Below are positions 7,801-47,973 of a DNA stretch of 64,000 nt, in pieces; the first letter of the stretch is position 1, and every line of letters starts with the position of its first letter. The stretch comes from Takakia lepidozioides (taxonomy: Eukaryota > Plantae > Bryophyta): positions 62,001 through 126,000 of the forward strand of contig CM060734.1 in assembly GCA_030704615.1 (NCBI GenBank), given 5' to 3'. Below the pieces are notes generated by a model. That model had not been told where the DNA came from, did no database searches, and saw nothing but the letters and a program-made list of their open reading frames with translations. Position numbers and translations under genes: made by a program.

Positions 7801-8139
7801 TGCACTTGGCTCGAGTGTGCAGCCGCCCTGGCTGGGACTTCGTGTTTTTTGGGTCGGCGTGGTTCGAGAGCTCCGCAGGCTTAGGGACTTAGCGTTTGTT
7901 TGTTTGTCTTTGTGCCACCATCTGCGTTTTCTTAAGGTTCGCGAACCAGGATAAGCGGTTTCTAAAAGACTAGTATCTTGCTGTGTGCACATGAGAGAGC
8001 GGGTGGGCGGGGGGAGGAGAGAATAGAGAGAGAGAAGTGCCGCGCAGCGAGTGTATTGTTTGTGGGATCGACCTGTATGTTTGCTCTTGTTGTGTCGGCC
8101 ACGGTCACGACGTGTGCTATATGGGAGCTTTAGAGCGGA

Positions 8140-11100
8140 GACAGCAGGGAGTGTTCAACAGTATGGCTGAACGAGATGTGGTGTCGTGGAGTGCGATGAT
8201 TGCAGGATATGCACAGCGGGCGCGGGATGGAGGCTTTGCAGACATATGAGCACCTTCTTCAACACATTTCAGCCTGTTTTCCCTGTTATCAGGATTCAGA
8301 GTCATCCCTAAACTTTCGGGTTGAATTCTGCAAGTTAGCTCGACGTTGGTGCAAAAAGGTGAATGCCTGTTGGAAGCGCAAGTCAGCATAGGAACTAGTG
8401 TGAGAAGTAGGGTTAGGGTGTTTGCTGGAACAAATCTAGGCTGTCATTGTCCGCTGCTAGCAGCAAAGCAAGGAGGTACTATGCATGATTTGTGCAGAGG
8501 TATGGATAGCCGAAGGAGCAGGGCTAGAGTGTGGGTCCAGATTCATCCAAGAGGGCCGGATTTCAAGCTCCAGATTACCTATGAATCCCTGTGGAATGAT
8601 AGCTACAAGGAACCTGCATGCGTAGATGGTCAACTGGAAGCCGCAACAGCAGTAGCGGCGGCACAATTGATAAAATTCAGGTACTGCTACTCAAGGCACC
8701 TTCTTCAACACATTTCACCCTGTTTTTTCCTCTTATCAGAACCGGCCCTAAATGTCTCTTAAGGCCTTCAGCAGATGGGTTGAATAGAGTCACGTGGTTT
8801 ACTTTTTCAACTTGATTTTCAGATCTTAGGGCATGCGAGAGACAGTGTCAACAATCAATCATTCTTCCTGCAAAGTCTTGGTATGCACAATCTGAGACTT
8901 GAGATCCTCCACAAAGGCCAGCAAGTTTTTAGTTGAGGATCCACCCTCTGCCATATCCTCATTAGCACAATATTTGAGCTTCCCTACCCTGGTTCGAATT
9001 GCCATGCCCTCCTCCCCTATCATTAGCTCCCTAATGTGTGCATGATTTGTGCAGAGGCAGAGATAGCTGAAGGAGCAGGGATAGAGAGTAGGTCTAGATT
9101 CATCCAAAAGGGCCAGATTTCAAGCACAAGATTACTTATGATTTCCTGTAGATCAATAGCTACAAGAAACCTGCATGGGTAGATGGTCAACTGTCATGCC
9201 GCAACAGCAGCGGCACATCTGACTTTGACATGATACTGCCATTGTGACAACAGGAAAGTATCCAAAAATACGGAACAGAGATGAGGAGAAGCTGTGGAAT
9301 GAATACTTTTCTGACCCCAGTCAATGGTGGGACACCAGGCAAAAAGGTGAATGCTTGTTAGATTACAGGAGAGTAGCAGACGCAATTCAGTATAGGAACT
9401 AGTGTAATAAGCTGAGTTGGGTGTTTCCTAGAACAAATCTAGGCTGTCATTATCAGCTGCAAGGCAAGGATGTATGCATCATTTGTGCAGAGGCATGGAT
9501 AGCTGAAGGAGCGGGGATAGAGTGTGGGTCCAGATTCATCCAAGAGGGCTGGACTTCCAGCTTACCTTGATTTCAGGTGGATCAGTAGCTACAAGAAACC
9601 TGCATGTGTAGATGGTCAACTAAAGGCAGCAGCTGCAGTGGCACAGTTGATAAAATCAGGCACCTCAACCATGACCACAGCTGTTGAAATTAGAGGATCA
9701 AGAGAGGGAGTCCACAATGCCTCTTCTGGCACTTCTGGCATGTGAAGATACTTTGTGCGGCAGGCAGACTGACAGAGGCTCTACAGACTCTAAACCAAGG
9801 AGGCATTTCAGCAGATTCAGATATGTCTGTCTGTTGCTTAAGTGCATCAAGATGATGGTCTGGAAGCTGGAAAGCAGTGCACACTCACATTATCCAAAGT
9901 GGATTCACACCAAATGTTTTTCTACTACTCAACACCCTTGTCAACATGTATGTTAAGTGCGGGAGCATCATGGATGCTCACCAAGTGTTCAACAGAATGC
10001 CTCAATGATCTTTGATCACGTGGAATATTATGTTGGCAGGATTTACCAAGCGTAGGTGTGGTAGGAATGCTTAGGAGACCTATGAGCAAATGTTGCGTGA
10101 AGGTGAAGCCCAACCACATCGCGTTTGTTTGTGTTTGCAATGCGTGTGCAAGCCTGGGAGCTCTGGAAAAGGGCAAAGGTCCATAGTGACATTGTCAAAG
10201 CTGGAATTGTACCAGATGTCATCCTGGAAACAGAAGCGGCAGCAGCCCAATTGATAGAACAATTCGCTGCTAATGAAGGTACCTTCTTCAATACATTTCA
10301 CCCTGTTTTGCCATGTTATCAGAGTCGTCCCTAAATTTCATGTAGAATTCTGCAAGTTAGCTCGTTCATGATGTGAGCTGGCATGAGTTTTATAAAGATC
10401 CTTCACGATGGTGGGACAACCGCAATCACAAGGTGTGGCTTTTCTTAATGTACGATGTGAAGAAGTTTGTCTATCCTGCAAAGGTGGGCTCTTGGCTCCT
10501 GTTAGTACCATGATTTGGTGTTCTTCCTGATGTTTACAAGGTTCTTGGGAGAGTCAGCTTGGTCTTAGTAGGCCGTGTTTCAATCTCTGCCTGCTCAGCT
10601 GCACCGTGGTGGTTCTCACAGACCAATCCAACATTACCTGACTGGGTTGATGCTCGGTCAAATCCTCCATGGGTCAAGGACAATGTGGTGAGGCACCTTC
10701 TTCTTTGACCTGTCCAGCCTGTTTTGCCCCCTCATCAGACTTGGCCCTGAGATGCATATTGAATTCTGTAAGTTAGCTCATTGGGTGGATCTGTGGTGGT
10801 TTGGAGTGACTTTGAACTAGTGTGATAAGTAGGGTTGGGGTGTTTGCTGGAACAATTCTAGGCTGTCATTGTCAGCTGCTAGCAGCAAGGCAAGGATGTA
10901 TGCATGATTTGTGCAGAGGTATGGATAGCTGAAGGGGGCAGGGATAGTGTGGGTCCAGATTCATCCAAGAGGGCTGGATTATTCAAGCTCCAGTTACCTA
11001 TGATTCCATGTGGATCAATAGCTACAAGAAACTGCTGCAATGGGTAGTGGTCAAGTAAAGGTAGCAGCTGCAGCAGCACAGTTGATAAAATCAGGCACCT

Positions 11101-12480
11101 CAACCATGACCACAACTTCTAAAAGAGGATCAAGAGAGGGAGTCCACAATGCCTCTTCTGCTGGGCATGTGAAGATGCTTTGTGAGGCAGGCAGACTGAC
11201 AGAGGCTCTACAACTTTAAACAACAAGGCATTTCAGCAGATTCAGATACGTCTGTCTGTCTCTTGCTTAAGTGCATCAAGATGAAAGGTCTGGAAGCTGG
11301 AAACAGGTGCACACTCACATTATCCAAAGTGGATTAACGCCAAATGTTTTTCTACTCAACACCCTTGTCAACATGTATGTCAAGTGTGGGAGCATCATGG
11401 ATGCTCACCAGGTTTTCCACAGAGTGCCTCAACGATCTTGATCACGTGGAATATAATGTTCGCAGGATTTACCAAGGATGGGTGTGGTAGGAGTGCTTTG
11501 GAAACCTATGAGCAACTGCTGTGCGAAGGGTGAAACCCAACCACATCACATCTGTTTGTGTTTGCCATGCGTGTGCAAGGCTGGGAGCTCTGGAAAAGGG
11601 GAAAGAGGTCCATGGTGACATTGTCAAAGCTGGATTTGTACGAGATGTCATTCTGAACACTGCCCTGGTGGACATGTATGCCAAATGTAGGTGCATTAAG
11701 GATGCGAAGGGAGTTTTCAACACTATGGCTGAACGAGATGTGGTGTCATGGAATGTGGGGGGAATGTGATGCTTGCAGGGTATGCACAGCAGGGACATGG
11801 TATGGAGGCTTTCGAGACCTATGATCAAATATTGATGGGGGAAGGGATGAAGCCCAACCACATCATGTTGCAGCATACTGGTACTTCACAGCCATGGCGG
11901 CTCTCTCAGCCCCTCCATTTTTTCTTCTCTTGGTTTTTTTGGCGCTGGGAGAGAGCAGCAGCTCTGCTGTCTCCTTCCCCTTGCTTATGCCGATTGTTAA
12001 AGGGGAAACTGTCATTCTGAACTCTGCCTTGGTGGACATGTATGCCAAATGTGGGTGCAGAAAGCCTGATGTGAAGGGAGAGTTTGACAATATGGCTGAA
12101 CGAGATGTGGTATTTTGGAGTGCCATGATTGCAAGGTATGTGAAGCCAGACCAGACCGTCATGTTCATTTGTTTTTGTAATATGCATATGTGAGCCTAGC
12201 AGCCCTGGGAAGGGGCAAAGAGGTTTATGGTGACATTATCCAATCTGGAATTGTACCAGATGTCATTCTGAACATTCCCCTAGTGTACATCTACGTCAAA
12301 TGTGAGCCTGGCAGCCCTCAAAAGGGCACAAAGGTTCATGACGACATCGTCAAAGCTGGAGTTGTCACTCTAAACACTGCCTTGGTGGATATGTATGTCA
12401 AGGCAGCCCTGGAAGTGGATGTCACTTTGGGTGACAAGGTAGCTGGCACCACCATTCTCTGGAACTCATTCTCAAAATGA
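8140..12480 (+). pseudogene. Cluster 1 of shuffled, frameshifted PDF-motif/PLS-class PPR gene copies
   Basis: PPR motifs (VFNSMAERDVVSWSAMIAGYAQ; KPNHITSVCVCHACARLGALEKGKEVHGDIVKAG; NTALVDMYAKC) at about 8140-8250, 9740-10230 and 11165-12410. They are interleaved with OSB PDF-motif exons (IHP[R/K]GPDFK[H/L][K/Q]ITY..LW...KPAWVDGQL at 8541, 9098, 9534, 10959; EEKLWNEY...PSQWWD at 9281; WHEFYKDPSRWWDNRNHK at 10379). Many stops and frameshifts. Confidence 0.85.
8859..9040 (-). pseudogene. Captured C-terminal fragment of a UDP-glycosyltransferase (family 1 GT)
   Basis: IRELMIGEEGMAIRTRVGKLKYCANEDMAEGGSSTKNLLAFVEDL matches the conserved UGT C-terminal helix (VRELM.GEEG..MR.R...LK..A..A..EGGSS..NL..FVE). 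Confidence 0.8.
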
Positions 12481-13250: not shown

Positions 13251-13354
13251 CATCTGGATTCGACTGCTTGACTGAAACGACTTGACCTTTGTCACGCATG
13301 TTCGACTATGGAGGCTGGGAGTAAAAATGTTGCAAACGACTCAAAAATGAGTCA

Positions 13355-14732
13355 AACACGAGCTTGGAGCATTCTTGCGGACTCCACTTTGTCAAAGTGT
13401 TCAGCGGTTGGAGGGAAACGCCGAACGAGCTTTCCATCTCGTTTGGTTGGCCACAAGTCAGGATTTGCTGAGGGACCCCGGAGGGACGCAGAAGTAGTAG
13501 CACATGCATGGAATTGGGGTTGTCTCGCAAGGGAAAAGTCTGCCTCCTCCAGCATTTCAATCTCCTGAAATCTGAGATGTGTTCCCACCTTCACGGGCCA
13601 AACGGTTGGAGGAGATGGCTTCATCACTACGGAAGGACGCACAGTTCCATACACACATCTGGCACAATCATTTGTGCATAACCAGAACTTGTGGTTTTTG
13701 GCTTCTGGTTGACCGTATGGACACATCAAACCTGTGAAAGTCGGAGCAGGAGTTCGGGCACCACCTCTGGATATAGATGAAGTGCACTTCTCGAAATTAG
13801 TTGCCCTGATCGCTGTACATTTCACACGAGACCCCACACTTGTGCGTTCTATATGTCAAACGTGGTCGGGGCATGCGGACTCAAGCACATCAAGGGGTTG
13901 TTTCTCTCCTGCACCATTTCAGTGGCACTGTTTGATGCTGGAGCTTGCCGTCGTGTTGGAGGTTCCTCCACAATGGAGGTTCCGGACATGGAGCTGTCAT
14001 ACAGGGGAACACGAGGCTTGGAGAAGTTATCACGGTCTGCCCTGTGTGAGTCGGAATCCGAACCAGGTGGAGTGTTCAATTTCCTCTTACAGGAGCCGAA
14101 TCTCTCCTCCCCTTCAAGATGTGGAACTCTAGAAACAAGTGGCATTCCCTGGGCATACATGCTCACCGCCCGTGCTATCTTGATTGGATCCCCAGATCTG
14201 TTTGCAGCACGCAACATCAACTCCCATTTGTCCGGACCTTTGCCACCAACCCCACCTCGCAAGAAATCACGGTATCGGTTTGTTGTTGCAAGGCACGTAT
14301 CAAATCATCTGTTGTTGCCACATACAAATCCCGACCTCGTTTCCCAGACTGCTACAACCATGCGTTGTGCACAGTTTCTGCCAAATTGCAAGATGGCATG
14401 TCCGTCATTTCCTCAATGGACATGTTCTGCAAAGTGGAGAACCACACTTCAAAACAGTGAACAGAAAACAACATAAAGAAAGCGAGGACACAATAAAATG
14501 GAAAGTAAATGTATGAATAAAGCAAGAAATATAAGCCTCGTACCACTGGCATGGCTACTCCCCACTGTCTATACCGGAAGTGCCAAAACGCCAGCCAATC
14601 TTCCAATGCTCTCATACTCTCAAGTGATGCAGCTCCAGAAGAGAACCATCAGGCACGAATTGTCTGGAACAAAGTGTCCGCCTCCTTCATTGTTCTAGCA
14701 TCTTTGTACTCTTTGCACAATTTACGGTGCTG
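13355..14732 (-). repeat. Inverted duplicate of the MULE transposase segment 25169-26537
   Basis: Near-identical reverse complement; the ORF track gives the same peptides on opposite strands (e.g. HRKLCKEYKDARTMKEADTLFQTIRA, GKGPDKWELMLRAANRSGD). The intron is retained. Confidence 0.95.
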
Positions 14733-15459
14733 GCTTCTATTCTTCCCCTCCATCTCTGTACTATTTTCATTACCTTGTACTTGTAGTTGCCAAAGCCTCT
14801 CTTGGTGGAGGCCAGTCAGTCCGGGGTTTTGGGCTGGGCTATTCTGCAGGATCAGCATTGCAGCTGGATTTTGGTGTGGGGGTGTTGATGTTTTGATTTC
14901 TTGTGTTTGGATCCCCCCCAACACCTGCATGCTTGACTGTGCGCCATGTTGGTTTTGTGTGGGCGCTTGCTTTCATAGGGATTAGGCCGGATTTGATCCC
15001 CGGTCAATCCTAGAGTATGCTGTCGGTGGTGAGGCTGGAGTGATGACCAGCAAGACCACCAGTGTTTCTTCTATGGTGAGGCTGGGTTGATGACCAGCCA
15101 ACCATAGGAGTTCTTGCGGTGGATGCAGGTGCAGGTGCCCTGAGCCATTGGGATATGACCCTTAACTGCAACAGGTGCCCACCCGTGTCACTATTAGATT
15201 AGTACTAGAGCCTTATAGTGTCACGTGGAGGAGGTGCACATTGTGAGTGTCATTACGGAGTTACCCAAGGGTTTTGAGGGGAGTACGGCTACAGGCCAGT
15301 AACAGTGAGAGTGGGTTCACAAGACGAGGTATTCGGTTCAGACCACCTTCACCGCCACCCTCAATTACTGTAGAGTCAGACACAGACTCGGAGGCTTCAT
15401 CAACAGGTGTGCACTTTCATTCGCCATTGTTGTGGGACGACATGGAGGAGATGTATGGA

Positions 15460-16560
15460 GCTACCAAGGGGCCTCGTAGGTACTCCGAGCTGTGGGCACA
15501 ATCGAGTTGGATGACTTTATCCAGGAGTTCGACAGCTGGTGTGATTTGCAGCAGATGCGCAATCCACAGCTATTCACCCCATTCATGGCGTGGAAGGGAC
15601 TGTTCCAGCATTTGGAAGGCCCGCCTATGGACGATTACCACGAGTTCAGGCGAGGACATGAAGCAGAGATTGAGGAGTGGAGGATGTATTGGTCACCTGA
15701 CTACGTCTCCATTACTCGAGGCACGACGCGACCAGTAGCTGCATCAGTACCAATAGCTCCACTGCCAGCACTAGTAGTGGAGCAAGTAGTGCTGGTACTT
15801 CTGCAGGTGGTACCAGTTCAAAAGGTGCTACTACTCCTCCTGCCACGACTACAACACATGTGCCTAGATTCAACCCGGTGGTGGAGTTCTTCCAGGAGTT
15901 GCGGAGGAACTACCAAGGTGTACGGACAGAGAAGCTGCGAAGTGCAAGACCAGCGCAAACCCAGTGAGAGCCTGCGAGAGGCGTACACTCGTATGAGGCG
16001 CTTGATAAGTGTGACCCAAGGGGTTACTGAAGCTCAGGCAATCCAGTTTTGGTATGGAATTCTGGACAAGGAGCTCAAGAGAAGGGTGCGAGATGCAACC
16101 CTGTTACAAGCAGCCCAACCCACATTAGCAGATGTGTTTCTGCTGGCTGAGCGGATTGAGCTCAACATGGTGGAGGAGCGAGTTGTTACAATTGGATTTG
16201 GCAAGGACATGCCTACACGAGGCACAGCTGTCAGCCCACAGGCACAAGGGACTGCCCAACAGCGTGGTCAGGGGGCAAGGTTGCCCAGCCCAAGTTCCAT
16301 GGAGCTTACAGGGGACCTCAGGTGCAGAGGCCCGTGGCATCTTTTGCAGGCCAACAGCAACCAGGGGTGATATGTTGGACATGTGGAGGACCCCATGTCA
16401 AGAGAGATTGCCCAGAGAGTGGCAAAAGGCCGGCACAAGCACAGCCTGCACAGTTGCAGTGTGGGCATTGTGGCAAGTATGGGCATGGAGATGCCCAGTG
16501 TTATGACTTGCATCCTGAGTTGCGCCCAGGCCAGTTCCAAGGAAACAATGGTGGCCGGGG
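15460..16560 (+). pseudogene. Gypsy gag with two CCHC-type zinc knuckles
   Basis: ELDDFIQEFDSWCD; QRKPSESLREAYTRMRRL...FWYGILDKEL; CWTCGGPHVKRDC and CGHCGKYGHGDAQC. Confidence 0.85.
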
Positions 16561-17439: not shown

Positions 17440-17760
17440 GCCACTGCGGGTCTTGTTGGACTCGGGAGCTCAGCCACTGATGTTGGGCAGAGCTGCTATT
17501 GCAGGTTTGGGCCTCATGGAGGCGGATATGGAGCCTTGTCCTTTCCAGATACAGACATCTCTGGGAGGATCAGAGCAGGCTCGGGCATGACACGGCATCA
17601 GTTGGCCATTAGACTACAGCCGGATCATCCTGATGGCTCAGTGATGCGAGCCAAGGCCATTGTGACAGACGCGGTCTCTTACGATGTCCTCGTTGGTGGG
17701 GCAGTGTTATACCCCATGGGCTTCACCCTGGACTTTTGGGAGGAGTCAGCATCCTACAGG
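17440..17760 (+). pseudogene. Retropepsin-type aspartic protease domain
   Basis: RVLLDSGAQPLMLG (DSG at 17459) and a downstream YDVLVGGAVL. Confidence 0.85.
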
Positions 17761-18164: not shown

Positions 18165-19100
18165 GCATTTGCCTTCTGGACTTGTTTGGCGGGATCAGCA
18201 CCGGATTGGCTGCTGTGCTACAGGCAGGTGTACGAGTTCGACGTTACCTGTATGTGGAGAGGGATGAGACTGCACGACGCGTCTCACTGCGCCATGTGCT
18301 CAGTTGGTACAGCAGTACCCTGCTTTGTTGCCAGTGTCTGCAGTTCGTGGATACCAACAAGCCTTGCCAGCAGACATTTCGTTGCTGGGGGGCAGGATTT
18401 GGAGCAGGTTGGCTCCATTGATCTGGTAGTGGCAGGTTGGCCCTGCCAAGGGCATTCATCAGCCGGGCATGGCAATGGATTGCGAGACTCGAGGACGGGT
18501 CTGTTTTGGGAGATGGTGCGGATTTTGCGCCACTTGCAGCTTCATCAAGCTGTATCTCCAGCATACATCTTGGAGAATGTGCCACTGATGGGTGATTCTC
18601 GGGCCAGGTGATGGCCAGTGTGCATCAAGTCCGGTCGTGGCTTGGGTCAGCAGTGTTGCTGGATGCAGCTGCAGTGGGGTCACGGGCTCATCGTCCACGG
18701 CTTTGGTGGACTAACTTGATGCCACCCGCACTGCTCAAGCGTGCATTTGATGGGGTGCAGCGGCCAGCACACCTCACCGTGGATGGCATTTTGGACACAG
18801 GGAGGCAGTCTCAACGTGTGAGACACGATGACCGTTCGCCTTTGGCAGTGGTCAACAGGGTGGGTCAACCACGAGCAGCATTACCTACACTGCTCAGCTT
18901 CCCAGGATCCCATGCTTTTCGGGATGGTGGACCTGGCCTCTGTGGGATGCTCAGTTGCAGCAGTTAGTGGAGCCTAATGCGAGCGAGAGCGGGCTATGGG
19001 GTTTTCCACTGGGACCACGGCGGTGCCTTCTCTTTCTGAGGCATCACGTCGTCAGGTGTTGGGGCAAGCAATGGATCTCAATTGCTTGACCTGGATTATC
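18165..19100 (+). pseudogene. C5-cytosine DNA methyltransferase domain inside the Gypsy polyprotein
   Basis: Motif I LLDLFGGI, II YVERD, IV IDLVVAGWPCQGHS (catalytic PC), V DSRTGLF, VI YILENVP, VIII AHRPRLWWTNL, IX ERAMGF, X RRQVLGQAM, all in linear order, split by several single-base frameshifts. Confidence 0.93.
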
Positions 19101-19539
19101 AGCTTGGCTATGGCTGAGCAACGTAGAGTGCGGAGTGCACTTCCCTTGACGGTCTCTCTGCCTACCGAGACGGTACAGGCAGCGAGTGGGGGGCGAGCCG
19201 GTGAGGACCACGGGGTGTAGACATCCATGGCACACGTGGGAGGTGCTCGAGGTTCAGAGGGAGTTGGCAGCCAAGGCAGCTGTGATGGATGAGGTTGGGG
19301 ATTCTTCTCGGGTTGAGGAGGTTCTCAATGATGAGATGATGGGGCAGGATGAGGCCTTGTCATTGACTGAGCAGGAAGGGAGTACTGCTCAAGAGGTTGC
19401 AGCATAGCAACCACGGGACGCGTCCTCTACCTCTAAGCCCACTGGACTTAAGGTTGCAGTTACGGAGGACAATTGGGAGCCTGACATTGGACCCATTGTC
19501 ACCGGAGGAGAGAGACGACGTATACGGCGGTTCCTGAGG

Positions 19540-20900
19540 GCTTACAGGAATTGCTTTGCCTTCAGTTTGAAGGACTTGGGAGCACTGAAGGGTCAAGAGA
19601 TCCGTATTGAGTTGGCCACTGACACGCCAATCTTTCGGAGACCCTATAGATACAGTGACATGGAGAGGTCTTTGATTCAGATGAGGACTCAAGATCTCTG
19701 GGAGGCAGGTTTGGTGGAGCTCTCTGGTGGAGAGTATGCTTCAGCCACAGTGATGCCAGCTAAGAAGGATGTCTATGGCAATTGGACGGAGAGACGTATG
19801 TGCGGTGATTACCGGCCTGTAAATCGTCAGACCAAGTCCGATAGGTATGCCATGCCGACACCAGAGGAGATCTTTGATGCCATTGGGCATTCCAAGGTCT
19901 TTAGCACGTTGGATTTACGATCCGGATATCACCAGTTGCCGATCAAGGAGGCGGATAAGCAAAAGACGGCATTCTGGGGGATCAATGAGCACGGGAAGGA
20001 TTGCCTATACCAGTGGCGGTTCTTACCATTTGGGCTTAAAAACGCTCCCGCTGAGTTTCAAAGAGTCATGGACAGGATTCTAGCAGGGGTGGAGTTTGCT
20101 CGGTGCTACATAGATGACATCATCATCTTTAGTGCTACGGTGGAGGAGCATGAGAGACACCTTCAGGGGGTATTTGAGCGCTTGAGGACGCACGGATTGA
20201 AGTTACATCCGGGAAGTGCAAGTTTTTCCACAACCAGATTGAGTATCTGGGTCACATGATATCCTGGAGGATTGGGGGTACAGCAGACTAAGGTAGAGTC
20301 CATTGCACAGGTTCCACGCCCCACGGATGTGAGCCGAGTTCGAGCTTTCATGGGGTTAGCAAACTATTACAGACGGTTTGTTAAGGATTTAGTGCCATTG
20401 CAAAGGCTCTAACCAAGCTGACCAAGGTGGACCAGGAGTGGCAGTGGGAAGATGAGCAAGAACAAGCTTTTCAAGAGCTCAAGGCGAGGTTGACCTCGGC
20501 GCCCATCTTGAGACGACCTATCAGGGGGCGTCCTTTTCAGCTGCATACAGATTGGAGCATGCTGGGGCTTGGAGCGGTGCTCACACAGGTGGATGATGAG
20601 GGAAGAGAGTTCGTAGTGGCTTATGCTAGCCGCTCGAACAATGCTGCAGAGTCTAAGTATAGCTCATATGAGGGAGAATGCTTAGCTGCAGTGTGGGCCG
20701 TGGCAACACTTCAGGTGCTATCTATACGGCAATCTCTTCACCCTTGTCACGGATCACCAACCACTCAAGTGGTTGATGGAGTCAGACAAGCTTACGGGGG
20801 AAGCTTGCACGGTGGGCACTCATCCTTCAAGAGTATGACTTTCAGGTGGTGCATCGACCGGGTTTGGTCAATCGCAATGCAGATGGGTTGAGTCGCAATC
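19540..20900 (+). pseudogene. Reverse transcriptase and RNase H (Gypsy)
   Basis: RMCGDYRPVN, FSTLDLRSGYHQL, LPFGLKNAPAEFQ, YIDDI; LHTDWS, VVAYASR, YEGECLA, NADGLSR. Confidence 0.96.
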
Positions 20901-21269
20901 CATGCACGAGCCAGCAGGATGACACTGGAGCTCGGTGGCATGGTGAGACGGACGAGGAGATGGTGCCCGGATGGCATGCATCTGCATTTCTGTGTATCTT
21001 GGCAGCGGAAGGCCAGGTTGGACCTGCAACAGGGATGACTGTAGATCAAGTGTCTGAGGACCCTGAGGCCAGCAATGAGCAAGGTGGCGCCAAAGATATA
21101 CATGAGGATTCAGTTGTGTTGGACTACCTCCGCACTGGAGACACAGCCACTGTGACTGCCAAGGAGAGGGATCGGATCCTACAACGAGCCAAGAGGTTCA
21201 AGTGGGAGGGGACACACCTGCTCCGAGTGTGGGAGGATGGTCGAGTGAGGATTGTGCCTCACCAACACA

Positions 21270-22535
21270 GCGGGCACGGTTAGTGCGGCATGCCCATGAG
21301 GAGTTGGGGCATTTTGGGGTGCGACGCACTCATAGTCTACTGCAGGGGCAGTATTGGTGGCGTGGTATGCACACAGAGGTGCAACAATTTGTGGCTAGGT
21401 GCATGGTGTGTGACAGGGTGCGTGCTTCATTCAACGCCCCTACTCCACAATTGCACCCTCTTCCGATCATGGGATTGGGCTACAGGTGGAGTCTTGACTT
21501 CGCAGGCCGTTGCCACTGACCATGCGCCACAACAAGTACGTGTTGGTGATGGTGGAGCACTTCTCCAAGTGGATTGAATTGGTTCCATTGCCTGATAAGG
21601 CTAGTGAGGGAGCTGCGTATGCATTCTTGGATTGTGTGCTTAGCCGATTCGGTGCTCCAGCTGAGGTACTCACGGACCAAGGGAGAGAGTTCTTGGGGGA
21701 GTTTCAGGCTTTGTGTGACAAGGCCTTGATAGACCACCGCACCACTTCTCGGGATCATCCTGAGGCCGATGGCTTGGCAGAGAGAGTTGTTCAGACAGTA
21801 AAGAGGGGTTTGCGCAAGTATGGCTTGCAGAAGGGACACCTAGGAGATTGGGACCTTCAGTTACCCTGGTTAGCCATGGGCTACAGGTTCAGCAAGCAAG
21901 CATCACTTGCCTCCTTCTCACCATACTTTCTTCTCTTTGGCCGAGAGCCGGATTTGCCTACATCCATTCGCAGAGAAGCTGCTACAGTTCTTAACCTTGA
22001 CGATCCGGACGTGTGGGCACGTGCATGTGAGCAGCGTGCAGAGTTGTTCAAGAGAGTCATGCCCATGGCTTTCGAGAACCTTGCCATTGCACAACACCGT
22101 GATACGTTGAGGTATGCTACCATACGTGGTGGGGGCTATCGTCCTGGGGTTCGGAGATTCAACCCTGGTGACTATGTCTATCTGCAGCAGACTGCTCCTA
22201 CGACCCTGGATGTGACTGCAGGACGTGTTATTTTGAGGGTTCGAGAGGTCTTGCCCTCAGGCGTCTTGGTCTTGGAGGGTCGGGATGGCATAACTTGGAA
22301 GGACCATGTGCGTAATTGTGCGCCATGTCACCTTCCGAATGTCGATGGCAGGATTGACCCAAACCTGGCAGTGGTATCTGCAGGTTTGAGGTGCATGTTG
22401 TGTGGGTCTGCTAAAGGGGCAGCCACCATGCTGGTGTGTGATCGATGCTCTAGAGGTTGGCATATGGGATGCTTGACTCCACCTCTTGAGATGGTTCCGG
22501 ATGGGGATTGGTTATGTCCACATTGCATTGGATAG
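21270..22535 (+). pseudogene. Integrase (HHCC, DDE core) with a C-terminal PHD finger
   Basis: HEELGHFG...CMVC; WSLDFAG, LTDQGREF, GLAERVV; C-terminal CMLC...CDRC...WHMGCLTPPL...GDWLCPHC (C4HC3, 22392-22526). Confidence 0.95.
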
Positions 22536-22794
22536 TGGGAGTGGATACAACCATGGAAGGCTAACAAGAAACGCAAGGCCAAGCTACTAGGAGACCTTGA
22601 ACACACGAGATCCTGGCTCAAGTTCACAGATTGCAAGACGGCGACTAACGATGGGGCTACTCTTGTACCCGGCCTCTTGGTCTATAGAGTTTGAGTACAT
22701 AGGGACAGTGATAGAGGACTTAGTACGGCTGTGGCTATTACATCTTGTAGCTATCTGGAGTTAGAGGGACCTATCCACCAGCTAGGGGGGCGAT

Positions 22795-23233
22795 TGTGGC
22801 AGACTACTTTATTGTGCATATATGTGGTGTGGTTTGGACAGCGATGTAGTTGTGTAGCGATATGTATGCGCACGACAGCTGTCAAGTTAAATAAGCACAG
22901 TGTGAAAACAACTAGAATAAAGCTAGTTATTTGTATTTAACACTTGGATTTAGGTCAAGTGTTAAATCAGGTGTCAAGTTTAGTTTGACACCTGAACCGT
23001 CTTATCTTCACGAGAGCGGCAGTCGCGGCTCATCTCTCTCGAGTTGAGCCTGCGCGACCGAGCTCCTTCATGCGTTTAGATTTGAGTGTGCTTATGATGG
23101 GAGTGTAGGTTGTTGTGGGGTGGAGTCCCCATAGCTTGGGGTGCCCCTGGCTCGACTTCTGTTTTAAAGAGTGATAGCGATGGATTCATGTTGTTTCTGG
23201 TGTGAGCAGTGTGTCTCTTAGCTTGTTCTATCA
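22795..23233 (+). repeat. 3' LTR (439 bp), followed by a second truncated LTR start at 23235-23319
   Basis: Begins TGTGGCAGAC just after the PPT and ends TTCTATCA. The first ~85 bp recur at 23235. Confidence 0.8.
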
Positions 23234-23347
23234 TTGTGGCAGACTACTTTATTGTGCATATATGTGTGGTGTGGTTTGGACAGCGATGTAGTTGTGTAGC
23301 GATATGTATGCGCACGACAAAGGTATCAACGTACGCGAGGAAAGAAG

Positions 23348-26300
23348 ATGGCTTCCTCTGAAGCGGAGTTCTTCTCTGACGACAAACCAGTGTCGTTCTC
23401 CCAGGAAGTCCTTGACAATGGATTTGCAATTGTTCTGGAACATGTCTTGGCTACCCGTTTTCAGCTTCAGAATGGCTCCATCTTTTTGGAGAAAGAGGTG
23501 TACGATTTGAAAGGGAAGTTGTTGAAATACTCTTTCCAAAACCATGATGAGACGGCTCATGCTAGCCAGTGGAGAGTGCGCCCTGGTCGATACAGAGTAC
23601 TTGGAGAGCCTCGGCGAAAGTCCCTTGGGTCATATGTGACGTCCGGGACTGCTGCTTCGGTCGTTGAAGACAAGAAGGGGGTGGTGGTGAAAAAAGAAAA
23701 GACGTCCTCCACTCCAATCGTTGAGCTTTCGGATTCGTCCGATGATGACATAAGTGAAATTCCAAATCCAGTCCTTCCTACTGTGGTTGGAGAAGTTGAT
23801 GAAGAAGATTTTGTAGTGTCATTCCAAAATTACGGGCGATGGGAGGAATGGCTGGATTCAAAAGTGAGTTGCGAGGAATTGATTGGGAATCTTTGAAGCA
23901 GGTGCCTGTGAAGTTCTTGCCAGAGACTTTTGATGGCGATATCCTATTCGAGCTGTCTCCTCCTCCGCGAGTTGGAGGTGTAACAATCATGATGCATGGA
24001 ATGGACAAGAAACACGACGGGCACCCGTGGTGCAGAACAAAAACATCCAATATTCAGAATGATGACAAGCTTGTTTTCAGGAGAACAGTTTGCAATGGAC
24101 ACCTTAGGTGTGATAATTTGAATTGCAGACACTTTCTTCAGTCTGGGGTTCATAATCAAAGCGAATGGGAGGGTTTGGCGGAAAATCCATTTCAGCCTGG
24201 GACTGCCCCCATCGGCAAACACTTTTGTCTGCAAATTCTGCAAACTTGTGCCATCTTGCTTGGCGCTCTGCGGAGCAAGAATGTACTATGTTGTCCACCG
24301 TTTGGAAACAATGACAAGAGCTTGTGTGCATTTCGGATTCCATAACCATCCTGTCTCGAAGGGGGATTACAGGGACAGTGTTGAGACAGTATCGAGGTTG
24401 ATTAAACAGGAGTTCGGGAAAAACCCATCCGCAACAACATCTGCAATTGCTCTTGGCGCAAGCAAGTCCTTCTTGGAAAGCCATATTTTGAGTGAAGGGG
24501 ATTCTGTGGGGACTAAACTTGACGGTGCAGCATTGGACCTGGTCATGGATCATTTCTCCACTTTGAGTTCACCTAACATTCGGCATCAGATCAATGCATT
24601 AAGAATGGGCTCTGGTATCAGAGGCTACATAGACAACATTTTGGAGTTGAAACAAGTGAGCAAGTACGATTACATCCAGGACAATGTATTCCCAGGTCAA
24701 GGTGCCATCAAAGTTTTTCTTTTCAAAATGTCGACTGTTGGGGAGGGCAGTGGGGTTAGCCTCGTGAAGCGGATGCAGAAGACTGGGGACTTGCAGAACT
24801 GTTTTCTTATGTTTGATCATGTGAAACGAGTGAAGGATTGGACGACAATGGCTTGTCATGTCTACGATCCAGTGTACCAACGAGTTATGACAATTGCAGT
24901 TTGTGACATGCAATCCGAGGATACGGAATCCCAGAAGCTCATGTGGAATTCCCTGATACGTGTCATGGGCTGCCATGGGCTGCCATCTCCAAATTTCGCA
25001 GGTTTCATGGCGGATAGTGCTCAAGCAAATTTCAATGCTGTTCGTATTGTCTTCGGATCGGGCGACCCAAAAGTGCCAATGCGAGGAAGAGAGCGTACAT
25101 GTCTATTCCATTGGACACAATCTCTGGAAAAACATACAAAGTCGGACATCAAACCAGAGATGCAGACTCAGCACCGTAAATTGTGCAAAGAGTACAAAGA
25201 TGCTAGAACAATGAAGGAGGCGGACACTTTGTTCCAGACAATTCGTGCCTGGTGGTTCTCTTCTGGAGCTGCATCACTTGAGAGTATGAGAGCATTGGAA
25301 GATTGGCTGGCGTTTTGGCACTTCCGGTATAGACAGTGGGGAGCAGCCATGCCAGTGGTACGAGGCTTATATTTCTTGCTTTATTCATACATTTACTTTC
25401 CATTTTATTGTGTCCTCGCTTTCTTTATGTTGTTTTCTGTTCACTGTTTTGAAGTGTGGTTCTCCACTTTGCAGAACATGTCCATTGAGGAAATGGCGGA
25501 CATGCCATCTTGCAATTTGGCAGAAACTGTGCACAACGCATGGTTGCAGCAGTCTGGGAAACGAGGTCGGGATTTGTATGTGGCAACAACAGATGATTTG
25601 ATACGTGCCTTGCAACAACAAACCCGATACCGTGATTTCTTGCGAGGTGGGGTTGGTGGCAAGGGTCCGGACAAATGGGAGTTGATGTTGCGTGCTGCAA
25701 ACAGATCTGGGGATCAATCAAGATAGCACGGGCGGTGAGCCCAGGGAACACCACTTGTTTCTAGAGTTCCACATCTTGAAGGGGAGGAGAGATTCGGCTC
25801 CTGTAAGAGGAAATTGAACACTCCACCTGGTTCGATTCCGATTCGCACAGGGCAGACCGTGATAACTTCTCGAAGCCTCGTGTTCCCCTGCATGACAGCT
25901 CCATGTCCGGAACCTCCATTGTGGAGGAACCTCCAACACGACGGCAAGCTCCAGCATCAAACAGTGCCACTGAAATGGTGCAGGAGAGAAACAACCCCCT
26001 TGATGTGCTTGAGTCCGCATGCCCCGACCACGTTTGGCACATAGAACGCACAAGTGTAGGGTCTCGTGTGAAATGTACAGCGATCAGGGCAACTAATTTT
26101 GAGAAGTGCACTTCATCTATATCCAGAGGTGGTGCCCGAACTCCTGCTCCGACTTTCACGGGTTTGATGCGTCCATACGGTCAACCAGAAGCCAAGAACC
26201 ACAAGTTCTGGTTCTGCGCAGATGATTGTGCCAGATGTGTGCATGGAACTGTGCGTCCTTCCGTAGTGATGAAGCCATCTCCTCCAACCGTTTGGTCCAT

Positions 26301-26820
26301 GAAGGTGGGAACACATCTCAGATTTCAGGAGATTGAAATGCTGGAGGAGGCAGGCTTTTCCCTTGCGAGACAACCCCAACTCCATGCATGTGCTACTACT
26401 TCTGCGTCCTCCCGGTCCCCCCGGCAAATCCTGACTTGTGGCCAACCAAACGAGATGGAAAGCTCATTCGGCGTTTCCCTCCAACCGCTGAACACTTTGG
26501 CAAAGTGGAGTCCGCAAGAATGCTCCAAGCTCGTGTTGGAAGCACCACGGAAGTACCCGATCCAGGATATGGTCGGGTATTCACAATCATCACTTCCAAA
26601 TCTGCTGTTCATGACAGGACCTACGACATCACGGTTTCCAATTCCCCCAATTGCACATGTCCTGATTTTGTGAATATGCTATCAACCAGTTTGGGCAAGA
26701 GAGTTATTTTTGAAGAGGATGGGTTGCGATCCCAAACGTGACAACTTCATTCACCAGGCCACTATGAGTTTCAACGAGGTCGATACTCTATTGCAGCGGG
26801 ATACAACACATGGGTAGCAT
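23348..26820 (+). mobile_element. Mutator-like (MULE) transposase pseudogene: WRKY/GCM-like Zn finger, DDE domain, SWIM finger
   Basis: DGHPWC...C...C...CVHFGFHNHP (WRKY/GCM-like); LMFDH, FMADSAQANFNAV, TCLFHW, NLAETVHN (MULE D, D, CxxH, E); YDITVSNSPNCTCPDF (SWIM start). GT-AG intron at 25358-25474. Frameshifted. Confidence 0.8.
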
Positions 26821-39862: not shown

Positions 39863-41115
39863 CTAGCAGATCATTCGTACAAAGATGAGCTACACTGAGC
39901 ACGGCTCGAGAAGAGAAATGAAAGACCAGACAAAGAACTGCGCAGAGCAGGCGGTGTAGGTAGCAAGGGAAAAGAGAAATGACACAGACTGACCGACAGT
40001 CGCCAGACTGACTCTAGAGCGCTTTCCACCACATCCCTCCGTGACCTGGCACTTTCTCATTGGCTACCCTTCATTTCAGCCTTCAACAAAACCTTAACCC
40101 AACGTGACCTGGCATCACACATAAAAGCCTACCCAAAATCTGGACGAATTTTACCTATTTGTTACAACTGGGGAGTAGGAAAAGAAAAAGCAATTAGGGC
40201 ATGTTTAACCCCTAGGCGCTAGGAGCCGTTTTGGGGGGGGGCCACCCCAAGAAGAGGACATAGCCTCATGGATGAGTTGTATCTGCCAGTGAAGATTCAT
40301 GCACAAAAAATAACCTTACCAACATTTAGCTACCTACTACATCTACCTACTCACAAAATTGTGCAAGAATTGACCATTAGAATTGGTAGATTACAACAAA
40401 AACACATTGTGGTTTTTTCAACTCCACACATATATAATTGGGAGGTGGCTGGGGACAGGTTTTTGTTCCGATGGAGTTCCGCATATGCGGTTAGAGGAGG
40501 CTGAGCACTTAGAAAGTTTTCTTCGTGCCTCCGGCTCGCCCCCCTACCCCACTCAAGTTCCCCCCACTACTTGTTTAAGTTTGAATCCTCGTCTCTAAGA
40601 TGAAGAGAGAAGATTCGGACTCCGAGTCCCTTCCTTCCATCTCCTCGGATTCCTGTGTTGAATCAGAGTTTCGGACGATACTCTAATGCAGTACAACCAT
40701 TCTTGAGCCATCCCCTTCCTGGGGGGTTGTTCATCCATGAGAAGCCCTTCGGGATGTGTGGATGTGATTATGACATCTTTTAATTTCCCAAACCACACTC
40801 ATCACTAAGCTTGCTCTCACTCACATACAGTTTGTTTATTGCTTAAGCTGACTGACGACTGTGGGCTGCCTAGTTGCACATCTGGATGTGACGTGGTGCT
40901 AGCACGTCGGATGTCACGTCCAGATGTGCGTCGCGTCGCGTCACATCAAAAACGAATGGTCTCTTTCGTTTTTTTTCTAATTTTCTACTTTTACAATTTA
41001 CTTTCATTATTTGTTTACGATGTGGCAGCCTAGGTGGATATAATTTTTTAAAGCATATAATATAATTGGCTATTTTGATAAGTACATGCTATTTAATTTA
41101 TTTATTAATTAGCTA

Positions 41116-41655
41116 CGACCGCCGAACTTAGACGGTCGCGCCAATTTTTATTTTTGTAACTGACATGTGACCACCGATTATTGGCGGTCGTATGTATTTA
41201 TTTTATTTATGAATTATCTGTGACCGCCGAAATCAGGCGGTTGCACCAATTTAATTTTTTTCAAAATTGCATGCAACCGTCTATTATTGGCGGTTGCATG
41301 TATTTGTTTCATGTTTTAAACACATACGGTCGCTGAAATTCGGCAGTCGCATGTTTTTTTTTTTTTTCTTAAATATATGCAACCACCGAATTTCGGCGGC
41401 CGCATGTTTTTTTTAAAAGAAAATATAAGTGACGCCGAATTTCGCAGTCGCAAGTTTTTGTTTTATTTTTTTAAATATAAGCAACCGCCGGATTTCGGCT
41501 GTCACATGTATTTGTTCTTTTCTTAAAATATAAGCGACCGCCGAATTTCAGCGGTCGTAAGTATTTGTTTTGTTTTTTAAATATAAACGACCGCCAGATT
41601 TGTTGTTATTTAGTTTTTTTAAATGTAAGTGACTGCCGAATTTCGGCGGTCGCAG
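41116..41655. repeat. Array of 11 palindromic GACCGCCGAAnTTCGGCGGTC motifs with a 53-bp period
   Basis: Unit starts at 41117, 41169, 41222, 41275, 41328, 41381, 41431, 41483, 41536, 41589, 41631, separated by AT-rich linkers. Confidence 0.9.
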
Positions 41656-41679
41656 CTATTTATTTTCGTTTATATTTCA

Positions 41680-43461
41680 TGTCTAACCAAGGAGGCATTT
41701 CAGCATATGCAGATACGTATGTCTGTCTCTTGCTTAAGTGCATCAAGAGGGAAGGTCTGGAATCAGCTGGAAAGAAGGTGCACACTCACATTATCCAAAG
41801 TGGATTCACGTCAAATGTGTTTCTACTCAACACCCTTGTCAACATGTATGTTAAGTGCAGGAGCATCATGGATGCTCACCAATTAAGGATGCGAAGGAAG
41901 TTTTCAACACTATGGCTGAATGAGATGTGGTGTCATGGAACGCGATGCTTGCACTGTATGCACAACAGGGACGTGGTATGGAGGCTTTGGAGACCTATGA
42001 TTAAATGATGGGGGGAGGGGTGAAGCCCGACCACATCACGTTTGTGTGCATTTGAAATGTGTGTGCAAGCCTGGCAGCTCTAGAAAAGGGCAAAGAGGTC
42101 CATGGCGACATTGTCAGAGCTGCAATTGTACCAAATGTCATTCTGAACAATACCCTCGTAGACATGTATGAAGGGAGCGTTTGATAGTATGGATGAATGA
42201 GATGTGGTGTTGTGGAGTGCGATGATTGCAGGATATGCACAGCAAGGGCGCGGGATGGAGGCTTTGGAGACCTATGAGCAAATGATCTGCGAAGGGGTGA
42301 AGCCCAACCACATCACGTTTGTGTGCGTTTGCAGTGCATGTGCAAGCCTGACAGCCCTGGAAAAGGGCAAAGAGGTCCATGGTGACATTGTCAAAGCTGG
42401 GATTGTACCCAATGTCATTCTGAACTCTACCCTGGTGGATATGTATGCCAAATGTGGGAGCATTGAGGATGCGAAAGGAGTGTTCAACACTATGGCTGAA
42501 CGAGATGTGGTGTCAGAAAACGCGATGCTTGCAGGGTATGCACAGCAGGGGCGCGGGATGGAGGCCTTGGAGACATATGAGCAATTGATGGGGGAAGGGG
42601 TGAAGTGCAACCACATCACGTTTGTGTGCGTTTTGCAATGCTTGTGCAAGCCTAGCAGCCCTGGAAAAGGGGCAAAGAGGTGCATGGTGACATCGCCAAA
42701 GCTGAAAATGTACCAGATGTGATTCTGAATAATACCCTCGTGGACATGTATGCCAAATGTGGGTCCATCGAGGTGCAAAGGTAGTGCTTGATAACATGGC
42801 TGAACGAGATGTGGTATCATGGAACGCGATGATCGCAGGATATGCCCAGCAGGGTCACGGGATGGAGGCTTTGGATACCTATGAGCAAATGATGGGCGAA
42901 GGGTACCACTGACAGTTTGGAGGCTGTGATGGCTGTATATGTGTGGGGGAAAAGAAGCGAAGGGATAGAGTGTGGGTGTAGATTCATCCAAGAGGGCCAG
43001 ATGTCAAGCACAAGATTACCTATGATTCCCTGTGGATCAATAGCTACAAGAAACCTGCATGGGTAGATGGTCAACTGGCAGCAACGGCACAATTGATAAA
43101 ATCAGGCACCTTCTTCAACACAATTCACCCTGTTTTCCCTCTTATGAGAATCAGCCCTAAATTTTCATGTTGAATTTATGCAAGTTAGCTGGTTGAGTGA
43201 ATTTAGTTTGGAGTGACTTTGACATGATATTGCCAATGTGACAACAGTAAAGTATCCAGAAACAGGTAACAGAGACGAGGAGAAGTTGTGGAATGAATAT
43301 TTTTTTACCCCAGTCAATGGTGGACAATCGAGGCAAAAAGGTGAATGCATGCTGGACAGAAAGTAGCAGATGTCATTGAGCATAGAAACTAGTGTGATAA
43401 GATGAGTTGGGTGTTTCGTAGAAAAAATCTAGGCTGTCATTGTCAGTTGCTAGCAGCAAGG
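41680..43461 (+). pseudogene. Cluster 2: PLS-class PPR tract followed by a PDF-motif module (continues at 44403-44560 and 52403-52889)
   Basis: ORF 42204-42722 has clean P-L-S motifs. IHPRGPDVKHKITYDSLWINSYKKPAWVDGQL at 42982; EEKLWNEY at 43275 and 52635. Confidence 0.88.
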
Positions 43462-45488: not shown

Positions 45489-47973
45489 ATAACCTGGACC
45501 ACCGGCATTACGTCTTCCACTATATCGGTCATGACTGACGAAGCAAGTACCCCCCGCCTGTTCTCCTGGTACGGGGATGTTTCATGACTCGTAAGCCCGT
45601 TGAAAGTCCAAGGTTTGTACGTGACAGACCCCTTTCTCTTCCACATGTCACCTTCCTCTACCTCGTTTAGATACGCCCTTACATCCCTTCGTAGCTGAGG
45701 CGATATCTGCAATAGTTGGCCCAAGGTGATGTCTACATTGCCATCCATCACTTTCATGGCCAACTGTTGAGGTTCTGTCGCGGATTGCTGGCGCGTTTTG
45801 TCCAATTCATCGACCATTCACTCCGTTACCCACAGTGATAGAAGACGACAAACTAGAGGACTTATCAACTTCTCTTCTTCCTCGGGCAGTGAGTTCTTTT
45901 CATCTGGGATGGTCGCAGCTCCTGCAGTTCTTCCTCGCATATACCCTTCCCCTTCTGCTTCTGATTGCGGGTTACACTACTGCATTTGGGGCGGGATAGC
46001 GATGCCCCAGCGACCTCCAACCACCGCGATTAGCGACGGAGATACTCTACGGCGCCCGGGGCGCGCCGGGGGCAATTTGCGACATCGGGAACTTGCAGCG
46101 ACGTCGGTCTGACGCCGCTCCTGGAACGTCGCTAATTAGCGACCTTGGGGCCTGGGGGGGGTCACTATATGTTATTTTTCCATATCACGTCAGACAAAGC
46201 CGACACAACCATTCTCACTGTGTAGAGAGATCTGAGTGAAGCTAAGAAGGAATAGAAATTACCCCCATGATACACTAGTTGTAGGTCATGACTGATTGTT
46301 CTGAGTGGGAGGAGTACTTAGAGATATCCACCTCTTCTATCTTGGAGTTTCCACCTCGGATAGCGAAGGGATGAGTAAAAGCCGCTCAACATGCGGTACT
46401 CTATGAAATTTCTAGGAACGACGACCCAGTTCGCAGCTAGCAGCTCTTTCATCCCTCCCCGTTGTACCAGGAAAGGATCTCCAATGATACGGGCTTACGC
46501 GCATCAGTTCATCACTCTCCCCAATTTGCACCCATCACTGAAGTCACGAAGAACAAGCTCAAGTGGCCCTCAAGACACCCAGTCAATGGAGGTAACCCGG
46601 CTGCTACCTCTCTCTGCATAGTTCACACTACTCTACACTACCTTTGTGTGCCTAGACTGACAGGGTATCACGATGTTATCCATTGTTGTAAGGAGGTTTT
46701 TGCACACTTATCTCGCTGCAAAACCCGCGGGCCCAGCCATGTTCAAGACGCGGCTACTCTTTGGAGCCACACAGGCCCGACATCCATGATGCCCTCCTAC
46801 TTTTGGAGCCATGGCACCCTCCCTAATTTCTGCAAGACAAGTGCCTAGGGCACCCGTGCACGGCGTCATACAACCGATCTTGGAGGCTTAGTCTAAACCT
46901 TGAGCACCTCAGAGGATGCAAGAAGGGGAGTAGGGCTCCCAACCCGCTGCTCAATGGTCACGATGACACCCCCCCCACACCAGCTAATCACCAGTCCAAT
47001 ATCTCGGCCTCGACCCAGTCACAACTTCACTAGGTGCAATTATTCCTCACCTACTTGTTGCTTACCCAAATGCTTACAAGGTACTTTGTCCCTCTACTGC
47101 CATTATTTTCCGCTTCACCATCTTACAGTTACTAATCTTTCCCCCCAAATCAACTCCCATACTCTCACAATGTGCCCTCACTTCCACTACCATCTCATAA
47201 CGTCTACCAAGATGCTGCCTGCACTCCCGTGCAGCCTCACTAATCCCAACCAAAACCCACACTTACAGAGATCTCAAATTACAGTTGCCTCTTCCAATTA
47301 CTATGCCATGTTGCGTTTGCCATATACTCTTCCTTGCATTACTATAAACTCTGTAAGTTCTACCTCACTCACAATCCATTTTTATTGGCAGCCTAACAAT
47401 ATCTCTTGGTTCAGCTCTCCAAGGCATCACTCCGCCCGCTGCAATTCTAGTATCTATAGATGCCTGGTAGCTGACTCCTCCGATCCACAAAGCATGTATA
47501 CTGGTCACCAGAACCACTCGACCTTAGGATATGCTCAACATGGGCAAGCTGGTCTAGGGAAAACAACAATTTTGAAAGAATGTTGAGTACATCAAGAAGC
47601 CTCTTTCTACATACACCGAGATGACCAACCCTGCCGCTATTGATTCAATAAGACAACAGTCCGAGTATTTTTACTCTATGAAGAGCCCTGCTGCTGTAGC
47701 AAACAATGTTATGTCTTATGCGACTCTCTCTTCCAAGCAGCATTGCGCTGAGGATGGCGCCACCCTTAACTGCTGGCCTCTCAACTTTTCCAGCTCGCCC
47801 ACCACGCCCTCCACTCGCATGTCTTCCCGCTGGGTTATCGTCCTTGCATGTGCCTCAATGCAGCCTCAGCTCCAGCACAACAGCATCAGGAAGGCAGGTA
47901 TTTCAAAGGAAAGGTATGAACCCAACCTCGCATGGACCAGAATGAGTGGTAGCATGTTCAGCTACTCTACTTC

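Follow-up and report, generated by a model that had tools for sequence, protein, structure and literature searches.

What does a PHD finger do at the end of a retrotransposon integrase, and does it act together with the DNA methyltransferase (DNMT) that the same element carries? In chromoviruses, the place after the integrase C-terminal domain is taken by a chromodomain, and chromodomains are the standard example of histone readers guiding LTR retrotransposons in plants and fungi. The question is raised by an element of Takakia lepidozioides found in the window analysed here (the whole stretch of 64,000 nucleotides, contig CM060734.1, positions 62,001 to 126,000), for which a sequence-only reading had proposed that a PHD finger directs integration to chromatin with unmethylated H3K4, thereby rebuilding a DNMT3-like reader-writer logic from separate parts. 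The integrase end of this element is made up as follows (positions are those of the window).

21286..21477, + strand: integrase H2C2 zinc finger, in a frame that differs from that of the core (Pfam Integrase_H2C2, 58.3 bits)
21498..22535, + strand: stop-free frame with integrase core, SH3-like C-terminal domain and PHD, terminating at a stop codon
21513-22007, + strand: integrase core (rve; Pfam, 48.4 bits)
22098-22349, + strand: SH3-like beta C-terminal domain of integrase, preceding the PHD
22392..22526, + strand: PHD finger (C4HC3) at the integrase C-terminus (Pfam PF00628, PDB matches, counted spacing)

Translation of 22392-22526 gives 45 residues with canonically spaced zinc ligands (CxxC-x11-CxxC-x4-H-x2-C-x14-CxxC) and an LTPPL..VP.GDW loop, and the curated profile PF00628 scores 42.3 bits there (E 7.8e-11, cut-off 24), so that spacing, loop and profile agree on the finger being intact and in frame with the integrase core, as first described. 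In the PDB, 82 solved sequences match it at E<=0.001, the best being CHD4, PHF12, KDM5B/5A PHD1, ATXR5, DPF3 and BAZ2A/B, which bears out its assignment to the KDM5/BAZ/CHD type. Within the frame 21498-22535 the finger lies C-terminal to the SH3-like domain, and its placement in the chromodomain position is thus borne out as well. An AlphaFold model of this frame is of mediocre confidence (mean pLDDT 61.5) and was used for fold confirmation only; the modelled fold matches those of foamy-virus and Ty3 integrases. The Pfam chromodomain PF00385 is absent from the window, from the 120 + 120 relatives listed and from 16 long polyproteins.

The element as a whole is a decayed Ty3/Gypsy retrotransposon with the order gag-protease-DNMT3-like-RT-RNase H-integrase-PHD, where RT is the reverse transcriptase. 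Upstream of the integrase, the following parts can be recognized.

14733..15487, + strand: remnant of the 5' leader, the true 5' end of the element being lost
15488..16501, + strand: gag-like region (translation), with DNA similarity to relatives from near 15488
16373-16501, + strand: two CCHC zinc knuckles of the gag-like region (translation)
17459..17467, + strand: DSG, which we take to be the aspartic protease active-site motif (read from the translation; no profile match)
18167..19103, + strand: DNMT3-like cytosine methyltransferase domain, split into four frame segments (Pfam DNA_methylase, 47.1 bits)
19405..19413, + strand: in-frame UAG followed by CAA CCA between DNMT and RT, a predicted readthrough site
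19627-20264, + strand: RT, frameshifted
20535-20902, + strand: RNase H, frameshifted

The gag-like region has no Pfam match, and the DNMT retains motifs I, IV (with the catalytic PC), VI, VIII and X. Gag, DNMT, RT and RNase H are split over several frames, and an open frame is shared only by the integrase core and the PHD; the word 'intact' therefore fits these two parts and not the element, and because its domains are scattered in this way the window copy is dead. Beyond 14732, the contigs of other copies of the element continue into different sequence. The same organism has many copies: in run X1, which possibly comes from it, 92,176 contigs map to the region, a figure that is not a copy number.

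The 3' end is formed by split repeats.

22784..22790, + strand: G run resembling a polypurine tract, ahead of the first B repeat
22793..22877, + strand: repeat B, first copy, ending in GACA (97.7% identical to the second copy)
22880..23232, + strand: repeat A, 3' copy, starting with TGTC (assigned from the A-coding-B-A-B order of related loci)
23233..23319, + strand: repeat B, second copy, which is the 3' end of the element

No second copy of repeat A occurs within the 64-kb window, the 5' A having been lost. The full A-coding-B-A-B layout is found at seven loci (L018, L019, L025, L030, L056, L067 and L071), seven related loci share the G run, and the ends of the full-layout loci resemble TGTC...GACA. 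An exact 4-base target duplication flanks four of the seven, one of them with a decayed end; two more have duplications with one mismatch and one is without duplication. At the B-A junction, both in the window (22874-22883) and at these seven loci, GACA is followed by two bases and TGTC, which resembles the joined ends of unprocessed linear cDNA.

These features identify the element as a member of the published KnitGypsy-Dnmt3 family, described from Klebsormidium nitens by de Mendoza et al. (2018; PMC5890265, partial text), in which DIRS-like repeats go with a Gypsy Pol that includes a Dnmt3-related domain. The window element has the Ty3/Gypsy protease-RT-RNase H-integrase order, a Dnmt3-related DNMT with catalytic motifs and the DIRS-like split repeats, as B-A-B in the window and in complete layout at the seven relatives. 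Its integrase finds a match of 59% identity in K. nitens KFL_009030040, which has a DNMT before RT, RNase H and integrase, and in a tree of RT-RNase H-integrase (74 of 112 rows kept after thinning of near-copies, no outgroup) the window and the K. nitens element (P0127) fall on the same side of a branch with SH-aLRT 100. Other named matches come from Marchantia, Sphagnum, Calypogeia, Closterium, Haematococcus, Tetrabaena, Pleodorina and Volvox, and the part comprising C-terminal domain and PHD is matched by 294 clusters (50% identity) at E<=1e-30.

Is the finger a property of this family or of a single copy? The census was queried with the integrase core alone, so that the PHD was unseen by the search, and 120 of 191 matches were listed. 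A PHD was found in 108 of these 120 by the family profile (107 by precomputed annotation), which answers the concern that it might be absent or degenerate in relatives. The 12 proteins without it either stop before the C-terminal domain (five) or 4-29 residues past it (six), or have a divergent Cys/His tail (one), and no chromodomain was found among the 120 of 191 relatives listed. The gap between C-terminal domain and PHD has a median of 13 residues (276 proteins). Selection points the same way. In the PHD region of the run X1 copies, 13 variants are common and 8 of these are synonymous, where 28% would be expected (p=0.013); none of the 13 alters a zinc ligand. Compared with five related loci, which are close kin and not independent, the PHD has dN of 0.21-0.28 and dS of 0.79-1.30; its rate of evolution exceeds that of the integrase core (dN about 0.25 against 0.13). 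By these sequence measures, the PHD is a family-wide, selected part of the integrase, under purifying selection.

Some side observations were made on these relatives. In L022 (9192-12352), integrase-PHD units of different subclades stand in tandem, suggesting the nested insertion of a family member. Chlorophyte-type loci have long ORFs 3' of the PHD (L023 11450-13831, L060 11043-13766, L053 4639-9135, L052 6951-9170 and L069 7272-8738), with no Pfam match above the cut-off, which are possible extra element genes. In the ESM Atlas, an 80-member integrase-PHD cluster of mostly mollusc records (score 0.89, a lead only) suggests that integrase-PHD fusions occur in animals too; further leads there are two chlorophyte PHD clusters and, when the PHD was excluded, mixed Gypsy clusters, none of which places the family.

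Which histone state, if any, would the finger read? Contact residues were scored in 202 PHDs, near-copies included, after 17 decayed loci with a mutated zinc ligand had been left out. The aromatic-cage Trp for methyl-K4 sits two residues before the zinc His. None of the 202 PHDs has it, and a K4me3 reader is therefore unlikely; an Asp stands right after the third Cys in 185 of the 202. When the contacts of KDM5B-PHD1 (PMC4225485, partial text) are transferred via alignment to 2MNY, the window PHD retains the equivalents of L325, D328, P347, G349 and W351, which in KDM5B hold H3 A1 and R2 (PMC4225485). As far as KDM5-PHD1, BAZ2 and ATXR5 are covered by the text available, it shares with them the spacing, an LLCD-type strand, the R2-binding Asp, the P-x-G-x-W pocket and the lack of a methyl-K4 Trp, but differs in being neutral at the positions that correspond to D308, E321 and the acidic wall. 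D308 is a K4 contact, named the main source of K4me0 recognition in KDM5B, and its change to Ala shifts binding from 6.4 to 41.7 micromolar (PMC4225485, same excerpt); neutralization of the acidic patch of BAZ2A lowers binding 17-fold (PMC5415848, partial text).

The loss of acids is common to nearly all of the window subclade, which marks it as a lineage trait rather than decay. An acidic wall is found in 0/19 PHDs of this subclade versus 36/47 in the sister clade, and any T3/K4-side acid in 3/19 versus 37/47 in the sister clade and 146/183 in all others, the mean net charge of the finger being +1.3 versus -4.3 in the sister clade. The R2-binding Asp (18/19), the hydrophobic strand residue (19/19) and P-x-G-x-aromatic (14/19) are kept in the window subclade. 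Set against what marks a reader of unmodified H3, the window PHD is free of the Trp and has the A1 pocket and the R2-binding Asp, and lacks the K4-facing acid and the acidic wall. The family as a whole thus looks, at the level of sequence, like a reader of unmodified H3. Without the T3/K4 acids and with a net basic charge, the fingers of the window branch are predicted to hold the H3 tip less tightly and to show little selectivity for K4, and the window finger may no longer bind H3 at all, given that the acidic wall is absent from all 19 and that neutralizing the corresponding patch cost BAZ2A 17-fold. K4me0 specificity, which the sequence-only reading had proposed, is consequently not supported for the window copy, whose neutral residues are shared by nearly the whole of its subclade.

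The explanation that we favour, with some confidence, is that the PHD is a chromatin tether of the integrase, helping it dock on nucleosomes, and that it probably does so independently of the element's DNMT. As an analogue of the chromodomain, it would hold the integrase on nucleosomes by way of the H3 tip, thereby biasing the sites at which new copies land. The ancestral finger would have bound the unmodified H3 N-terminus, which would in turn have biased insertion away from H3K4me3 promoters; in the window PHD, mark specificity is probably relaxed, to judge from the residues lost.

A different role is possible but rather unlikely, namely that in the window lineage the PHD no longer reads histones and is kept as a structural, oligomerization or nucleic-acid-binding part of the integrase. 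The positive charge and the missing acidic wall described above would suit such a role, as would the conserved short link to the SH3-like domain. However, contacts that are no longer used would be expected to drift, and the high retention of the H3R2 Asp, the strand residue and the P-x-G-x-aromatic pocket in this very subclade therefore counts against it.

Tethering by the PHD, our preferred reading, leaves the DNMT to be accounted for. The two domains do co-occur in most long members of the family, a point that the sequence-only reading had wanted checked: a DNMT is present alongside the PHD at 35 of 37 informative loci, and 63 proteins have both within one reading frame. Its position varies. 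In the window clade it stands before RT, whereas the other clade has it between RNase H and integrase (SH-aLRT 100 for the split), with 1032-1230 residues between the end of the DNMT and the PHD in the former arrangement (5 proteins) and 484-680 in the latter (58 proteins). Within the second clade, two nested lineages lack the DNMT at its position there and retain the PHD; nor was a DNMT found in the 572 (P0085) and about 960 (L046) residues before RT. A DNMT-only tree has support too weak to separate one move from two gains. Two candidates for loss were rejected: L004, whose similarity to L071 begins just before RT, is truncated, and in 41 proteins that start less than 500 residues before RT the upstream DNA is not covered.

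The in-frame stop between DNMT and RT recurs at the aligned place in L001, L002, L003, L007, L049 and L071, integrase synonymous sites being near saturation between these six loci and the window. The window context CAA CCA fits CARYYA, a known readthrough context (PMC3441728, partial text), which the six loci match at 5/6 bases. The stop is not universal, and is missing from P0013 of the same subclade and from another moss-type subclade. In that other moss-type subclade, an apparent second conserved stop 228 bases before RT was discarded as decay, Gln standing there in most copies. In the other clade, single in-frame stops between a long upstream ORF and Pol were seen in L023 (4857-4859) and L057 (1397-1399), without CARYYA context. 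Ty3/Gypsy Pol is cleaved by its own protease. Given this stop, which would be leaky, Gag, protease and DNMT would be produced upstream of it, the DNMT working as a separate protein, and integrase-PHD would come only from readthrough; the DNMT would then most likely act on the element's own cDNA, as has been proposed for DIRS elements (de Mendoza et al., PMC5890265, partial text).

As to the enzyme itself, the DNMT of the close relative L003 has DNMT3A/B as its best PDB matches, and 74 of 78 DNMT domains retain the catalytic Cys, 19 of them within the canonical PC. Most family DNMTs have GWECQ or a similar sequence in place of PC at motif IV, with the Cys kept.

In animal DNMT3, the ADD is a reader joined directly to the catalytic domain. 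This module is confined to animal DNMT3 (PMC12344493), and nothing of that build is seen in the window copy, whose DNMT and PHD are separated by more than 1,000 residues and by an in-frame stop. A reader-writer of the ADD kind, in which an H3K4me0-reading PHD would recruit the element's DNMT to the insertion site or switch it on there, as in animal DNMT3, appears improbable to us. In its favour are the co-occurrence at 35 of the 37 loci and in the 63 single-frame proteins, the arrangement of the larger clade, where the DNMT follows RNase H and precedes integrase, no stop separates it from the PHD and 36 of 47 PHDs keep the acidic patch, and the resemblance to DNMT3A/B. Yet both domains look ancestral to the family, so that their co-occurrence amounts to one event and not many, and the DNMT has changed place within the family and has gone from its usual position in two lineages with a PHD. 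In the window copy, the DNMT is far from the PHD and before a conserved stop, and the K4-side acids are absent. The K. nitens domain, moreover, was inactive in yeast, a result that the authors call inconclusive (PMC5890265, partial text). Distance, two placements, the stop and the lineages lacking a DNMT together make a DNMT3-like link in cis unlikely for the window copy as judged from its sequence, and on this point the original proposal is not supported. Against an uncoupled DNMT, it should be said that the co-occurrence with the PHD and the kept catalytic Cys are also what coupled function would predict.

A mixed history seems to us equally doubtful as that coupling: the green-lineage family would target its integration by the PHD throughout, a chlorophyte-type DNMT-integrase-PHD fusion would read unmodified H3 and methylate the fresh insertion, and the moss-type branch would later have been uncoupled when its DNMT moved before the readthrough stop and the acidic patch of its PHD was neutralized. 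Finally, an origin of the PHD as a fragment captured from the host, or its presence as a neutral passenger in a single copy, is scarcely credible and is refuted by conservation across the family, for although this copy is broken and lies in a rearranged repeat region, the same domain stands in the same place in 108/120 listed relatives, green algae and a liverwort included, and is under purifying selection.

How does a PHD that tethers the integrase, as we propose, compare with what is known? KnitGypsy-Dnmt3 shares the Gypsy Pol, the Dnmt3-related DNMT and the DIRS-like repeat layout, but in the available text it is reported from K. nitens alone (PMC5890265), whereas liverwort, peat moss and chlorophyte records are added here, together with two DNMT positions and the in-frame stop of the window subclade. 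The word 'PHD' is absent from the main text and three supplements of PMC5890265, although Fig. 4c and the main supplement may show one; more broadly, a pairing of PHD, integrase and DNMT was not found in the literature searched, subscription papers, figures and Repbase being outside its reach. Chromoviruses likewise have a histone-reader-type domain after the integrase C-terminal domain (PMC6317226, partial text), and that REXdb text, as far as available, contains neither 'PHD' nor 'methyltransferase'. They differ from the window family, which has a PHD for the chromodomain, split A/B repeats for two full LTRs and, in addition, a DNMT. In the green-algal transposon REM1, a PHD and a chromodomain are reportedly carried in a separate antisense ORF.

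The PHD is a common accessory domain of green-algal transposons, including Gypsy-7a_cRei, REM1 and Chlamys PLEs, and has been suggested to limit harmful insertions; Gypsy-7a inserts between genes 2.6 times more than expected (PMC9940879, PMC8557442, both in part). The Chlamydomonas elements resemble the present family in carrying a PHD, and the available portions of these two papers do not mention a DNMT for them. The PHD has also been likened to chromodomain targeting of heterochromatin (PMC6673714, partial text). EpiLTRs are LTR retrotransposons that, as here, combine a histone reader with DNA methyltransferases, but their chromodomain pairs with DAM and a DNMT4-related enzyme, and the streptophyte Gypsy-DNMT3 is called a distinct acquisition in the same work (bioRxiv 10.64898/2026.05.21.726589, partial text). 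Ginger1 elements have a Gypsy-like integrase with extra C-terminal domains (in one case with a PHD), 4-bp duplications and TGT ends; they are, however, animal DNA transposons with terminal inverted repeats and no RT (PMC2836005, partial text).

Going by these partly available sources, Gypsy-borne DNMT3, transposon PHDs with the suggestion of targeting (PMC9940879, PMC8557442, PMC6673714) and EpiLTRs are thus already in print. Added here are the loss of K4-side acids in one branch, the stop conserved between DNMT and RT, the placement of the DNMT at two positions, with its loss in some lineages, and the target duplications of 4 bases. The PHD represents a second, family-wide solution at the chromodomain position, and the family offers hundreds of natural variants, in which the DNMT is placed in two ways or missing and the PHD is acidic or basic. 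This makes it possible to test if insertion is directed by the PHDs of transposons and what purpose DNMTs serve in retrotransposons. Since split repeats probably hide the family from standard LTR finders, annotations of moss, liverwort and algal genomes may under-represent it.

The surroundings of the element deserve a brief description. A 1.38-kb inverted repeat (13352-14732 / 25169-26540, 96.6% identical) brackets the retroelement; its left arm repeats part of the downstream ORF region in inverted orientation and has taken the place of the element's 5' end, with the junction at 14732. This is either a local rearrangement or an assembly artefact. Between 23320 and 26700 lie broken Cys/His-rich ORFs that resemble a DNA transposase (presumably of Mutator/GCM type) and have no Pfam match; deep contig cover suggests that this stretch is a repeat, and the 3' end of the retroelement just precedes the first ATG of its ORFs. 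Other Ty3/Gypsy pieces occur at 46897-51156 and 55890-57818, neither of which has a PHD or DNMT by the family profiles; their Pfam matches are on the minus strand.

48560-49696, - strand: RT-RNase H (Pfam)
50506-51156, - strand: zinc knuckle (Pfam)
55890-57818, - strand: gag-protease (Pfam)

Degenerate repeats at 8100-12400 and 41800-42900 are, we assume from their appearance, fragments of PPR genes, and a 53-base tandem array is present at 41092-41664.
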